Origin: Leptolyngbya sp. BL-A-14
Lineage (GTDB): Bacteria > Cyanobacteriota > Cyanobacteriia > Leptolyngbyales > Leptolyngbyaceae
DNA length: 64,000 bases
NCBI GenBank assembly: GCA_041937185.1
Contig: CP166621.1
Span: 2,132,571 to 2,196,570, forward strand
Reading direction: 5' to 3'
The position numbers and the translations under genes were made by a program. The notes under the pieces are model-generated. The model was given only the letters and a program-made list of their open reading frames with translations. It was not told where the DNA came from and made no database searches. Of the stretch, positions 14,344 to 17,836 are shown piece by piece. The stretch's first letter is position 1. Each line of letters begins with the position of its first letter.

Positions 14344-14415
14344 TTTTGAGTTTTGAGTTTTGAGTTTTGAATGCCATTCTTTAACTCAAAACTCAAAACT
14401 TTTAACTCAAAACTC
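14344..14415. repeat. Inverted heptamer arrays forming a strong hairpin in the nifB-fdxN spacer: (GAGTTTT)3-4, a 15-nt loop, then (ACTCAAA)n
   Basis: 14356-14370 pairs perfectly with 14386-14400 (14 bp, extendable with a G-U pair). Read directly from the sequence. Confidence 0.85.
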
Positions 14416-15885
14416 TGTGACGTGCTGGTCGTAGAACTCGCGTGCCACTTTTTCAATCACGTCGTAGGCTTCTACCACTTGCAGACCAGATTCTCGTAGT
14501 TCCGCTTTCGGGCATTCACCCACTTTGGAAACGAGAACGGCTTTGCAATCTGCGATCGCCTTGATCACATGCTCCAGCGTGGCGTCTTCGCCATAACCGC
14601 CCTGGCAGTATTGGTCAATCTTGCGGTGTCCCACAAACTTCGCTTCGTTGGCATCCACTTCAAAGATTTGGAACTCTTTCGCATGGCCAAAGTGCTGGTT
14701 CACAATGCCACCACCCTTGGTTGCCACCGCTACCAGAATCTTGGGACTGTTCTTAATCCGCTCACTGGGCTTGACTCTAGCTTTGGCTAGCTTGATTTCT
14801 TCTTTGAAGTGTTCAATACCTGCCTGGACTTCTTGCCGCAGTTCCAGGTCGTACTGTTCCGGCATTTCCATAAACTTATCTTTGGTGAATTCCTGGCTAC
14901 GGTCTTCACCCAGCAAGCCGACTGCATCGGCACGGCATTGACGGCAGTGGCGCATCATTTTCATGTTGCTGTCAGCGCACTCGTCTTGCAGCTTTTTCAA
15001 TTCTTTGGGTGTGGGACCCCGTTGTCCCGTTAGACCAAAGTGGGTGCCGTGTTCAGGAGCCGAAATCAGCGGCATGATGTTGTGCAAGAAGGCACCTTTT
15101 TCGCGGATCACCTGATCCACTTCTGCCAGGTGCTCGTCGTTAATGCCGGGAATCATCACCGAATTCACTTTGCATAGAATGTCGGCTTCACGCAGGGCTT
15201 GCAAGCCTTCCATCTGCCGTTCATGAAGAATGCGAGCAGCTTCTAAGCCCTTGTAGCGTCTGCGGCGATAGTGTACCCAGGGATAAATCTTGGTGCCGAT
15301 TTCGGGATCCACCATATTAATCGTGATGGTGACATGATCCACATTGAGCGCTTTGATTTTATCCACATGATCCGGCAGCATTAAACCATTGGTTGAGAGG
15401 CACAATTTAATATCGGGTGCCTTGTCAGCAATTAACTCAAAGGTACGGAAGGTCTTTTCAGGGTTCGCCAATGGATCACCAGGACCCGCAATCCCTAACA
15501 CGGTCATTTGGGGAATCTTGCCTGCAATCACCAGTGCCTTGTGGGCAGCTTCTTCAGGGGTTAACAACTCACTCACCACACCAGGGCGGCTTTCGTTCGC
15601 ACAGTCATACTTCCGATTACAGTAGTTGCATTGAATGTTGCAGGCAGGTGCAACTGCAACGTGCATCCGGGCATAGTGATGATGCGCTTCTTCGCTGTAG
15701 CAGGGGTGCTTAGAAATGCGATCGAGCATCTTTTGGTCAAGGCTGGGTGCAGCGCTGGTATTGCTGCTACAACCACAACTATCGTCACTCTTTTTCTGCG
15801 TCACCGTGTTTTTAGTGATCACGATATCCGTAGCAGGCTGCGTTTCTGGAGGAGACAGAAGTCCTGAAGCTGGTGGTGGTGTCAT
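14407..15885 (-). CDS. nifB: Radical SAM FeMo-cofactor biosynthesis protein NifB
   Basis: 492 aa with the radical [17 protein letters not shown] motif and a C-terminal NifX-like domain. First gene of the minus-strand nif operon. Confidence 0.9.
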
Positions 15886-17053
15886 TGAATTTCGGCAGGG
15901 CTAAGTGGACAGCGCCACCGAGAAAGACGACTACTCCATACCTCTAAAAAACGATTGAAGCCACTGGTTACAGACAACCTACCAATGCAGGCTAGAAGTG
16001 CTGTGTCGTCCACCTGGGAGCGACTGATTAATGCTGTGGCACAGCGGCTTCATCTCGATTTATAGACAAAGTGTGGCGCAGTTACGTCGTCCTCTCATCG
16101 CCTCTCTAACCGTGAAACCCGAATTTGCGCTTGATTGGAAGAGCGCTTGGTTGGAAGAACCTGTGCTTCTGGTTTGGAGAGTTGAGTGATTGGCGTTGTG
16201 AGAGTTATAGCAACCGTTCAAAAGTGACCCAATGCTGCCAGCCTCGGTAAGAGTTATTGAATTTATTAGTTCGTACTCAAACACCTAAACCCAAAGCAAA
16301 TCGGCACTCCATTTTTTTTTAAGGGTTGGGGTGCGAGTATTTTTTAACGCAGGAGTGAGTATTTTTTGAGCAGGGAAGTAGCATTTCTTGTACTCAGCTC
16401 AAAAGCTTACCCAATCGGAGTTTAGGGCTATTTTTTTGTTGTTTTTTAAGTCGAGCGACGTGTACTCAAACACGACTCAAAAGCGTTCAAAAGCTAGTGA
16501 AGACGAAGCATTTAATCGGTTTTCGATTGACTTTTTGATAAAAAGCCGGGAGCAAACGGTATAGGATCGCTCCCAGCAAGATCCGAAATTCAATTCTGTA
16601 TCTAAATTAGCACTTTTTCTGAAAAATTCAATTCTGTATCTAAATTAGCACTTTGCTCAAAATGAGCGTCGTGGCTGTAACCATTTCTTCAACTTTGTTC
16701 AGAGCGAACATAACTATATTATAAATAGATAGCTTTGATACAGAAACGCCATTTTGAGTACAGGATTCAGAGCAGCGTATTTAAGTTGATAGTTTTCTCT
16801 AAAGCCCAGAAGTATTGAGTTTTACGGTGAGTACTCAAATACTTGCGCCTGCTTCAATTAATACCAGTCCCCTGATGCAAAAATACTCGTTCCTCACCCC
16901 TTAAAAAAATAAAACGTCCTCCCAGATAAGGGTTTGAGGATTGAGTACAGCACTAATTAATTCAATAACTCTGATTTGGGCTGCTGGTTCTGCTCCACTT
17001 TCTCCCGCCTGATATAAGCAGGGGAACAGAACACCGTTGGTCATCTAAAAGCG
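15886..17053. promoter_or_regulatory. 1.17-kb non-coding divergent control region between nifB and nifP; AT-rich with repeated GTACTCAAA(C/T)AC and TTGAGTACAG motifs
   Basis: GTACTCAAACAC occurs at 16274 and 16464, and GTACTCAAATAC at 16833. TTGAGTACAG occurs at about 16755 and 16940. GAGTATTTTTT occurs twice (16335, 16367). No convincing ORF is present. Confidence 0.6.
16586..16654 (+). repeat. Perfect 31-bp tandem direct repeat AAATTCAATTCTGTATCTAAATTAGCACTTT (x2, period 38 bp) inside the nifB/nifP control region
   Basis: Copies at 16586-16616 and 16624-16654, read directly and identical at every position. Confidence 0.9.
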
Positions 17054-17836
17054 ATGCAGCACCCTCTTACCGCTCTCTTATCTCCCCTGCCGCTGGCTTT
17101 TGCAAAAAACCCTTCGCAGAAAGCGGCGTTCTCAACAAAAGGATCTGACTGCCAGCACGATCGAGGTCAGAACTCCAATGCTTTAAGGGCAGGATGGCAA
17201 ACGCTGAAAGAAGATTTTCGCATCATCTTTGATCGCGACCCGGCTGCCCATCATTGGTTAGAGGTCATGTGCTGCTATCCTGGCCTCCATGCGATCGCCC
17301 TCTATCGTCTGGCTCACTGGCTCTACCGCCATCACGTTGTATTCATTCCCCGATTTCTTTCCCATCTAACTCGGTTTCTGACCGGCATTGAAATTCATCC
17401 AGGCGCAACCATCGGGAAAGGAGTCTTCATCGACCACGGTATGGGTGTGGTGATTGGAGAAACCGCGATCGTCGGTGATTACTGTTTGATTTACCAGGGC
17501 GTGACGCTGGGTGGTACGGGCAAAGAAATCGGCAAACGACATCCGACGCTGGGTCAGCATGTTGTAGTCGGTGCTGGAGCCAAAATTCTAGGCAACATTC
17601 ACATTGGCGATTACGCCCGTATTGGTGCTGGATCGATCGTACTGCGAGCCGTACCATCCCATTGCACCGCTGTTGGTGTTCCTGGTCGTAATATTGCTCG
17701 CACCAATACGCCAACCTGTCCACTTGAGCATGGGCAAGTTCCTGATGCTGAAGCGATCGCCATCAAAACTTTGCTCGATCGCATTGAATTGCTAGAACAA
17801 CAAGTTCAACAATTAACCCAACATCCTACTCCCTAA
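17054..17836 (+). CDS. nifP: Serine O-acetyltransferase, nif-associated (NifP/CysE-like)
   Basis: 260 aa with hexapeptide-repeat left-handed beta-helix signatures ([32 protein letters not shown]...[24 protein letters not shown]). Divergent from nifB, as nifP/cysE2 is in nonheterocystous cyanobacterial nif clusters. Confidence 0.8.

Follow-up and report, generated by a model that had tools for sequence, protein, structure and literature searches.

CnfR is an activator with 4Fe-4S clusters and a domain of the XRE type that binds DNA, and to our knowledge the control of nitrogenase in cyanobacteria has so far been described at two levels, namely transcription (CnfR, NtcA, sigma factors) and mRNA processing. 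The main nif operon begins with nifB, at which the synthesis of the iron-molybdenum (FeMo) cofactor is entered. The present analysis concerns the 1.17-kb spacer between nifB and the divergent gene nifP/cysE (serine O-acetyltransferase) of Leptolyngbya sp. BL-A-14, at positions 15886-17053 of the window, which is the whole stretch of 64,000 nucleotides (nt) that was analysed (GenBank assembly GCA_041937185.1, contig CP166621.1, forward-strand positions 2,132,571 to 2,196,570). The spacer is probably a shared control region of the nifB and nifP operons, organized in three layers (activator modules, promoters and a putative small RNA), and the interest lies in its central repeat, which exposes a conserved nifB-linked small-RNA-like gene that covaries with the nifB start region.

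The closest described systems are the CnfR-dependent cis-elements of Anabaena variabilis nifB1, nifB2 and nifP, which consist of TGAGTACA motifs (1A-1C) and the A/C-rich motifs 2A and 2B (Pratte et al., 2025, preprint), and those of the nifB-nifP spacer of Leptolyngbya boryana, for which papers citing Tsujimoto et al. (2016) describe the same motif set. Loss of 1A or 1B halved the transcription of nifB1. In L. boryana, the operons are transcribed divergently from the spacer on CnfR activation, mutation of the equivalents of 2A or 2B (IV-V, VI-VII) abolishes this activation, and the decisive boxes are motif 2, rather than motif 1B. In Nostoc 7120, purified CnfR binds in vitro to DNA fragments with these conserved regions. 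The nifB and nifP promoters of the described CnfR systems are extended -10 promoters without a -35 box.

The motif array of the window belongs to this known type, and the window is a new example of it. The locus was compared with 80 loci that encode relatives of NifB (labelled L001 etc.), of which 79 are cyanobacterial and none comes from the genome of the window or from L. boryana. The best NifB matches in the set were 91, 89, and 87% identical, and L001 is the nearest relative (91%). All promoters and transcription start sites (TSSs) in the window were predicted from sequence alone.

The small-RNA-like gene in the centre of the spacer

No repeat of the region is longer than an exact 31-mer, whose copies are at 16586 and 16624. 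A BLAST search of the region centre against the loci revealed that the reverse complement of this 31-mer matches a single element in most of them, which sits upstream of motif 1A in the orientation of nifB, with the 3' end of the model described below mostly 46-51 nt before 1A. The Nostocales consensus of the element is AAAAAAATGATATGTTAGATACAGAATTGAATTTCGCA, followed by CUGGAGUAG, a loop of ~10 nt, CUACUCCAG and a T-run. The features of the element in the window are as follows.

16540-16599, minus strand: small-RNA-like gene of ~58-60 nt (covariance model R1, 52.6 bits, E 4e-10, match 16539-16599)
16583-16599, minus strand: 5' single-stranded part (ACAGAAUUGAAUUUCGG), from the predicted fold and the alignments
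16545-16577, minus strand: hairpin with a predicted stem of 11 base pairs (bp)
16540-16544, minus strand: U-run (U5)
16604-16612, minus strand: extended -10 of the small-RNA gene (TGCTAATTT, TGnTAnnnT), with a predicted TSS at ~16597-16599
16624-16654, minus strand: second, tandem copy of the small-RNA promoter with the first 14 nt of the gene (period 38), an exact 31-nt repeat with its extended -10 at 16642-16650
16726-16745, plus strand: degenerate inverted copy of the promoter (TAGATAGCTTTGATACAGAA) beside the nifP motif 1A, with no terminator after it (inverted repeat I3)

The covariance model R1 was built from 26 sequences, and the search of 694 kb with this model gave exactly one full-length same-strand match per locus in 52 of the 79 loci and in the window, and none elsewhere. 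Among these 52 loci, TGnTAnnnT is found at the same offset, ending 5 nt before ACAG, in 50, and the T-run in 51. Within the promoter block, the TG, the TA and the final T are near-invariant while the middle three positions are variable, and such a variable interior within TG-n-TA-nnn-T is what an extended -10 box should show. An NtcA/CRP-type site (TGn-N10-ACA) was also considered for the central element and was rejected, since the base that ought to be the T of GTA can be A, C or T and the conservation follows TG-n-TA-nnn-T.

The hairpin, with a stem of 9-11 bp, was paired at 90.7% over 31 sequences, as compared to 25-47% in slid controls, and it includes 23 G-U pairs that would be A-C mismatches if read on the other strand. 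The predicted fold of the window RNA comprises an open 5' part, the 11-bp hairpin and U5, with a z-score of -3.4, and the RNA contains no AUG. At the sequence level, the element has a promoter of its own, a Rho-independent terminator and an accessible, covarying seed, as small-RNA genes do. The other loci carry a single copy of the small-RNA promoter unit. In the window, the tandem duplicate would give a transcript of ~98 nt ending at the same terminator, and the inverted promoter copy is probably a relic of the duplication that made the mirror module described below.

Two variants of the element were observed in other loci. In L065 (2923-3022), an insertion of ~40 nt places a nested GC-rich hairpin in the loop, and the outer stem and the complementarity of seed and target are kept. 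In Nostocales (e.g. L006, 2897-2944), a conserved inverted repeat, CCCTCAAaccc...aaTTGAGGG, lies between the terminator and motif 1A; this repeat is not found in the window.

Searches against Rfam (Rfam 15) returned no match with E up to 1 in 15500-17500, and none at the element in L010, L024, L065, and L070. Text searches (element sequence, CnfR with small RNA, nifB with small RNA) found no such cyanobacterial small RNA in the searchable literature, whose coverage leaves out Tsujimoto 2016, Vernon 2017 and Thiel 2019. The small-RNA-like gene is thus conserved and apparently undescribed.

Complementarity to the nifB translation start

The predicted 5' part of the RNA, AUUGAAUUUCGG, is the exact complement of CCGAAAUUCAAU at 15895-15884, within the following feature.

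15883-15895, minus strand: nifB translation start region CCGAAAUUCAAUG, the proposed target of the RNA, with the AUG at 15885-15883 (inverted repeat I8)

The pairing would extend over 12 contiguous nt of the nifB mRNA, from -11 to +1, among them the A of the AUG; the leader's predicted fold leaves the nifB start region unpaired. The sequences of the two partners among lineages are given below.

Nostocales: RNA 5' part AUUGAAUUUCGCA, nifB start UGCGAAAUUCAAUG
L012, L019, L047 and the window: RNA 5' part CGG, nifB start CCG
L057 and L031: RNA 5' part CGCU, nifB start AGCG
L055, L070 and L071: RNA 5' part AUUGAAUUCCGUG(A), nifB start (U)CACGGAAUUCAAUG
L065: RNA 5' part UGAAAUUCCGUGG, nifB start CCACGGAAUUUCAAUG
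L002: RNA 5' part GAAUGAAUUCCGG, nifB start CCGGAAAUUCAUUCgAUG
L003: RNA 5' part GAAUGAAUUCCA, nifB start UGGAAUUCAUUCgAUG

Variants with G-U wobble pairs between seed and target were found in L062/L066 and L037/L039. The duplex energies ranged from -17 to -23 kcal/mol, and only 0-3 of 1000 seed shuffles were as good. Covariation between seed and target was measured in a concatenated alignment of 26 distinct RNA/nifB pairs with 500 shuffles, and the score of 0.156 (shuffles 0.068 ± 0.012) was reached by none of the 500. At pair 14-43, 22 sequences have UA and 4 have CG, and at pair 17-40, 17 have CG, 4 GC, 4 UA, and 1 UG; no sequence leaves either pair open.

The distribution of the two partners was also compared. 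A pattern search detected the target motif in 48 of the 52 element-bearing loci, and L037 and L039 have the G-U variant. Among 22 loci without a model match, ~16 are also without the target motif, and joint absence of RNA and target was found in L001, L004, L018, L040, L043, L044, L048, L049, and others; several lineages lost the RNA element and the target motif together. In the nearest relative, L001, a promoter-like block is kept, while the hairpin, the seed, the nifB target and nearly all of the leader (~30 nt remain) are gone, which looks like a joint loss of RNA and target.

When the seed was paired with the whole window, the nifB start ranked 4th of ~32,000 segments and was the only one of the top segments with uninterrupted pairing at a start codon. 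The fifth-best partner of the seed, at 2421-2460 on the minus strand, lies just upstream of the GTG of a ThiF/HesA-like open reading frame (ORF; 1637-2422) and reads AUCCGAAAUU (-16 kcal/mol); it could be a second target or a chance match. In L006-L023, L037, L039 and similar Nostocales, the leader has a second site, GACUUCAAUUCU, ~70 nt before the nifB ATG, which could pair with the very first nucleotides at the 5' end of the RNA, AGAAUUGAAGU; this second site is absent from the window.

The covariation and the conserved gene structure lend a slight preference to a functional RNA directed at nifB. As a broader claim, held at about even weight for and against, diazotrophs of several orders (Nostocales, Chroococcales such as Crocosphaera, several filamentous non-heterocystous lineages and Leptolyngbya sp. 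BL-A-14) may produce an RNA of ~60 nt from just upstream of the nifB CnfR sites, the 5' end of which would pair with the ribosome-binding site and start region of nifB.

Activator modules, promoters and flanking genes

Two mirror-image modules were identified in the spacer, one directed toward nifB (16250-16468) and the other toward nifP (16755-16972), each with the order 1A, 72 nt, 1B, 2A, 2B, 1C, TAAT box and extended -10. The features of the modules, the promoters and the flanking genes, the latter read from family scans (NCBIfam), are listed below.

16462-16468, minus strand: motif 1A (TGAGTAC), nifB-facing, in the second copy of a repeated 12-mer
16390-16396, minus strand: motif 1B (TGAGTAC), nifB-facing
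16352-16367, minus strand: motif 2A (AAAAAATACTCACTCC), nifB-facing, containing one GAGTATTTTTT
16323-16345, minus strand: motif 2B (AAAAAATACTCGCACCCCAACCC), nifB-facing, containing the other GAGTATTTTTT and mirrored at 16879-16909
16273-16279, minus strand: motif 1C (TGAGTAC), nifB-facing, in the first copy of the 12-mer
16250-16270, minus strand: conserved TAAT..AATTCAATAA box between 1C and the -10 on the nifB side
16204-16212, minus strand: extended -10 of nifB (TGCTATAAC, TGnTATAA), with a predicted TSS at ~16197-16199
15886-16197, minus strand: predicted nifB 5' untranslated region (UTR) of ~312 nt, its TSS deduced from the -10
14407-15885, minus strand: nifB (TIGR01290, 4e-202)
16755-16761, plus strand: motif 1A, nifP-facing, part of TTGAGTACAG
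16828-16837, plus strand: motif 1B, nifP-facing, within the palindrome TGAGTACTCA, the minus-strand half of which is the third 12-mer
16858-16872, plus strand: motif 2A, nifP-facing (module alignment)
16879-16900, plus strand: motif 2B, nifP-facing (module alignment)
16942-16948, plus strand: motif 1C (TGAGTAC), nifP-facing
16952-16972, plus strand: TAAT..AATTCAATAA box, nifP-facing (module alignment)
17010-17018, plus strand: extended -10 of nifP (TGATATAAG), with a predicted TSS at ~17025 (module alignment)
17054-17836, plus strand: nifP/cysE, serine O-acetyltransferase (TIGR01172, 1.6e-73)

An earlier note on this DNA, made from the sequence alone, had described three repeated motifs and a palindrome, all of which were recovered. 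The 12-mer occurs three times, as GTACTCAAACAC at 16273 and 16462 and GTACTCAAATAC at 16831 (together GTACTCAAAYAC), 1-2 nt away from the positions given in the note, and its 3 matches compare with 0.36 expected in the whole 64 kb (0 of 100 shuffles reached 3). The 10-mer TTGAGTACAG is present twice (16754 and 16941), as is GAGTATTTTTT, in the form GAGTATTT(TTT) at 16335 and 16357, and the palindrome GAGTACTC is at 16829-16836. Both GTACTCAAAYAC and TTGAGTACAG contain TGAGTAC(A), the CnfR motif 1. The reverse complement of the 12-mer, GTrTTTGAGTAC, has the same core as TTGAGTACAG, so that 12-mer and 10-mer are one motif on opposite strands. In reverse complement, GAGTATTTTTT corresponds to the A/C-rich motif 2, both copies reading AAAAAATACTC on the nifB strand, and these copies with their C-rich tail are mirrored at 16879-16909 with 87% complementarity (inverted repeat I2). 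The three motifs of the earlier note are thus one known system seen from both strands. Its proposal of an array stands, but what is repeated is a 7-8-mer, present as three mirrored by three (3+3), instead of a 12-mer present three times; the fourth minus-strand TGAGTAC copy, at 16390-16396, and the exact 31-mer at 16586/16624 had escaped it. The AT-rich composition that it assigned to the whole region was found for 16200-16900, to which a GC content of 33-41% is confined, but not for 15886-16200, where GC is ~50% as in the coding flanks.

The TGAGTAC copies on the minus strand start at 16468, 16396, and 16279 (spacing 72 and 117 nt) and those on the plus strand at 16755, 16828, and 16942 (spacing 73 and 114 nt). 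Alignment of the reverse complement of 16180-16490 with 16737-17047 revealed two copies of one module, which match from 1B through the -10, in the order 1A, 1B, AAATAC..CC, AAAATACTCG..CC..CCC, A-run, 1C, ACTAATnAATTCAATAACTCT and TGnTATAA. In the 64 kb, TGAGTAC occurs 10 times on both strands, as compared to 4.4 expected, and seven of the 10 copies are inside the 1.17-kb region. The remaining copies (5117, 10808, and 26205), about as many as expected by chance, lie within ORFs provisionally read as nifN, nifH and a GMC-type oxidoreductase-like gene; the ORF read as nifN was not scanned against any family library, and it overlaps a nifE-like ORF that was likewise unscanned.

Comparison with the upstream regions of orthologous nifB genes, which the earlier note had proposed, showed that motif copies and spacings are kept in most of the 79 loci. 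Exact TGAGTAC triples (70-75 and 114-129 nt apart) face nifB in at least 50 of the 79 cyanobacterial loci, with a mirrored second triple in loci whose upstream gene is divergent. When 25 modules drawn from distant lineages were aligned, the alignment had invariant 1A, 1B, and 1C, the AAATACT boxes of 2A and 2B, the TAAT/AATAA box and the extended -10 TGnTATAA. The spacer thus presents the attributes of a CnfR element, namely three TGAGTACA-type boxes, two A/C-rich boxes between 1B and 1C, an extended -10 and a position upstream of nifB and nifP, and the earlier suggestion of a CnfR/PatB-type activator array serving both divergent operons is supported by the comparative data and by the literature on CnfR elements. 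By homology with other species, the modules are very probably the sites through which CnfR works. Upstream distances of the nifB-facing motifs are 80-275 nt when counted from the predicted TSS and 390-585 nt when counted from the ATG, for which the ATG fits better as the reference point of the published motif position.

In each module, the extended -10 promoter lies ~63 nt downstream of box 1C, without a -35, and in 66 loci the -10 ends 73-77 nt from where 1C starts. A simple sigma-70 scan of the region found no -35/-10 pairs, an absence that fits extended -10 promoters. When the -10 rule was applied to L033, the nifB TSS was predicted at -327, which agrees with the mapped TSS of A. variabilis at -328; other mapped nifB TSSs are at -282 in Nostoc 7120 and -296 in Nodularia, and long nifB leaders are typical. 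The predicted nifP 5' UTR has ~29 nt, and the nifP TSS of A. variabilis was mapped at -33/-34, as compared to -29 predicted in the window. The nifB-facing modules run on beyond the -10 into the conserved aTAaCGCCAAnCAC. The first ~15 nt of the predicted nifB transcript (16186-16197, minus strand; AACGCCAATCAC; aTAaCGCCAAnCAC) occupy the same position in most loci and are conserved phylum-wide, which the remaining leader is not, and this conserved start could be a promoter-proximal element or an element of the RNA 5' end. At 16127-16158, the predicted nifB 5' UTR contains a 16-nt tandem repeat, GCGCTTGATTGGAAGA / GCGCTTGGTTGGAAGA on the plus strand (94% identical), without counterpart in the shorter leaders of L001-L003.

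Downstream of nifB are fdxN, nifS, nifU, nifH, nifD, and nifK, and nifP is followed by an asr1405-like gene, dpsA and nifV.

Alternatives, possible mechanism and known systems

Several observations weigh against the interpretation given here. For the activator layer, no cnfR gene was found in the window (no ORF in the 64 kb has the CxxCxxCxxxC ferredoxin motif), and CnfR binding to this DNA is projected from data on other species. For the RNA, the hairpin is mostly conserved in sequence and its own covariation is modest; complementarity alone would fit an inverted DNA repeat as well as RNA-RNA pairing; and the Nostoc subclade with CGAAACUCAAUG (L007, L008, L009, L013, L014, L020, L023, L029, and L030) shows an A-C mismatch at mid-duplex that no change in the partner compensates. 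The central element may already be described in Tsujimoto 2016, Vernon 2017 or Thiel 2019. Finally, the only transcript data that bear on the small RNA are negative: the published small-RNA prediction for Nostoc 7120 has no entry between nifB (all1517, ~1,776,669) and asl1518, within a gap of the list that spans 1,752,847 to 1,795,979. That prediction combined TSSs of at least 8 reads from differential RNA sequencing (ammonium-grown cells and cells 8 h after nitrogen removal) with TransTermHP terminators, so the RNA was either undetectably expressed in those conditions or failed that pipeline. Since nif genes are induced much later, at ~21-24 h, the list is weak negative evidence. Candidate 1795979r (Brenes-Alvarez et al., 2016, Table S3) was considered and is not the same RNA, given the position of nifB at ~1,776,669.

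The same complementarity could arise if the central element acted as DNA, that is, as a distal operator with an inverted partner at the nifB start codon, both bound by one looping or repressing protein. The two sequences are reverse complements that change together across lineages, co-evolving sites of one protein would produce such a pattern, and the Nostoc 7120 prediction has no entry for such an RNA; yet this explanation leaves the conserved TGnTAnnnT at a fixed offset (50/52) and the hairpin with its U-run (51/52) unexplained, the G-U states tolerated in hairpin and duplex would be mismatches at the DNA level, and the distance between the two sites varies from ~400 to at least 1000 nt among loci, so that we consider it unlikely. 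The hairpin and U-run might instead be only an insulating terminator that shields the tightly controlled nifB promoter from transcription arriving from upstream, with the promoter box and the complementarity as relics. The element of Nostocales does lie upstream of the nifB activator sites, where read-through would harm, and the window contains a decayed inverted copy (16726-16745), but the window and L065 have a divergent upstream gene, leaving nothing to insulate against, and the element is intact; moreover, no other stretch of the whole spacer is as conserved as the 5' part, and its complementarity was kept through at least 4-5 independent double changes, which makes a mere insulator quite unlikely.

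The two remaining alternatives take up points of the earlier note, which had named a structured leader or a regulatory RNA as possible. The latter was apt, given the small-RNA-like gene in the middle of the region, although the note had not seen it. A riboswitch or attenuator in the nifB leader (15886-16197) would be in keeping with its length of ~312 nt, its GC content of ~50%, its fold z-score of -3.3 against shuffles and the long leaders of other species; however, leader length ranges from 34 to ~480 nt among the loci even between near relatives (L001 ~30, L003 ~90, and L002 ~170 nt), conservation is confined to the first ~15 nt and the start region, and Rfam gave no match there. A structured leader as the main feature was therefore abandoned, and that it carries the regulation is very unlikely. 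The note had further held that the motifs are not obvious NtcA boxes, as they do not satisfy GTA-N8-TAC, and that they are not NtcA boxes is upheld. In correction, a single canonical copy of GTA-N8-TAC (GTATTGAGTTTTAC) is present in the region at 16812-16825, just upstream of the nifP motif 1B, with ~185 nt between it and the nifP -10 (GTA-N8-TAC occurs 8 times in the window, as compared to 4.2 expected). An NtcA chromatin immunoprecipitation signal far upstream of nifB has also been reported in Nostoc 7120. Against binding of the TGAGTAC array by NtcA or a repressor rather than CnfR stand the arrangement of TGAGTAC, which is not that of NtcA half-sites, and the published genetics and in-vitro binding that link TGAGTAC-type motifs to CnfR. 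The GTA-N8-TAC copy is not conserved in the other nifP-facing modules of the 25-module alignment, and no GTA-N8-TAC was found centred ~41.5 nt upstream of a TSS, ~22 nt before the -10, as in class II NtcA promoters. NtcA was thus rejected as the organizing motif of the region, its sole site being unconserved and badly placed, and such an alternative is highly improbable.

The first two layers, modules and promoters, can be asserted with high confidence from sequence conservation and from published genetics in other species, and the evidence for the third is sequence and covariation. For this locus we infer CnfR binding, production of the RNA, repression rather than activation, and control of the RNA promoter. 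In the proposed mechanism, when nitrogen is limiting and oxygen is low, CnfR would activate both extended -10 promoters through the two modules, and the resulting mRNAs would have leaders of ~312 nt (nifB) and ~29 nt (nifP). The small RNA would pair across -11 to +1 of the nifB mRNA and occlude ribosome loading. This pairing would set a threshold, by which the translation of leaky nifB transcripts is suppressed, and strong CnfR-driven transcription would titrate the small RNA. Repression is proposed tentatively as the sign of the effect, being possible rather than probable. Whether such a post-transcriptional gate on nitrogenase cofactor synthesis operates atop the CnfR switch is, in our judgement, evenly balanced.

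The motif array itself adds little; it confirms the phylum-wide architecture of CnfR-type nif promoters and adds a further genome in which both promoters are annotated to the base. A conserved RNA against the nifB start codon would, if true, be a new layer of control. Reporter fusions behave normally only if they include sequence of the 5' coding end, and, as a speculation, the small RNA might help to explain this need. The element also bears directly on the transfer of cyanobacterial nif clusters to non-diazotrophs, since constructs with the nifB-nifP spacer would carry it.

In comparison with the known systems, the spacer resembles the nifB-nifP CnfR element of L. boryana (Tsujimoto et al., 2016, as described in citing papers; motifs I-IX) in its divergent operons, its shared spacer and its repeated TGAGTACA-type and A/C-rich boxes before each promoter; compared by description, the operons differ, since the order is nifP-asr1405-dpsA-nifV here and nifP...nifENXW in that description. 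With the nifB1, nifB2 and nifP promoters of A. variabilis (Pratte et al., 2025, preprint), it shares the motif sequences, their order (1A, 1B, 2A, 2B, 1C), the -10 without -35, the long nifB leader and the short nifP leader. It differs in the spacing between 1B and 1C, which is 124-129 nt in Nostocales and 114-117 nt in the window, and in the arrangement of the genes, as nifP of A. variabilis is unlinked from nifB whereas the modules of the window stand back to back.

The central element is similar in layout to NsiR4, an RNA of ~60 nt with its own promoter, an unstructured 5' pairing region and a Rho-independent terminator, which pairs with a translation start. In Nostoc 7120, NsiR4 is the neighbour of alr3725, and its -10 is preceded at 22 nt by an NtcA box, whereas no such conserved box is found here and the element is always linked to its presumed target, nifB. 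Identity with NsiR4 was rejected, as NsiR4 lies tail to tail with alr3725 at ~4.499 Mb in Nostoc 7120 and the element lies beside nifB, at a deduced ~1.778 Mb. The tandem duplication of the small-RNA promoter in the window (period 38) recalls the NsiR1 tandem array upstream of hetF, from which it differs in having two copies and one terminator, in being private to this genome and in its unrelated sequence. The small RNAs NfiS and NfiR of Pseudomonas stutzeri pair with nifK and nifD mRNA and are reported to enhance expression in an Hfq-dependent manner. They resemble the proposed RNA in that a small RNA acts directly on a nif mRNA, and differ from it in sequence and phylum, as well as in the target, which here would be nifB, where pairing over the start codon suggests repression.

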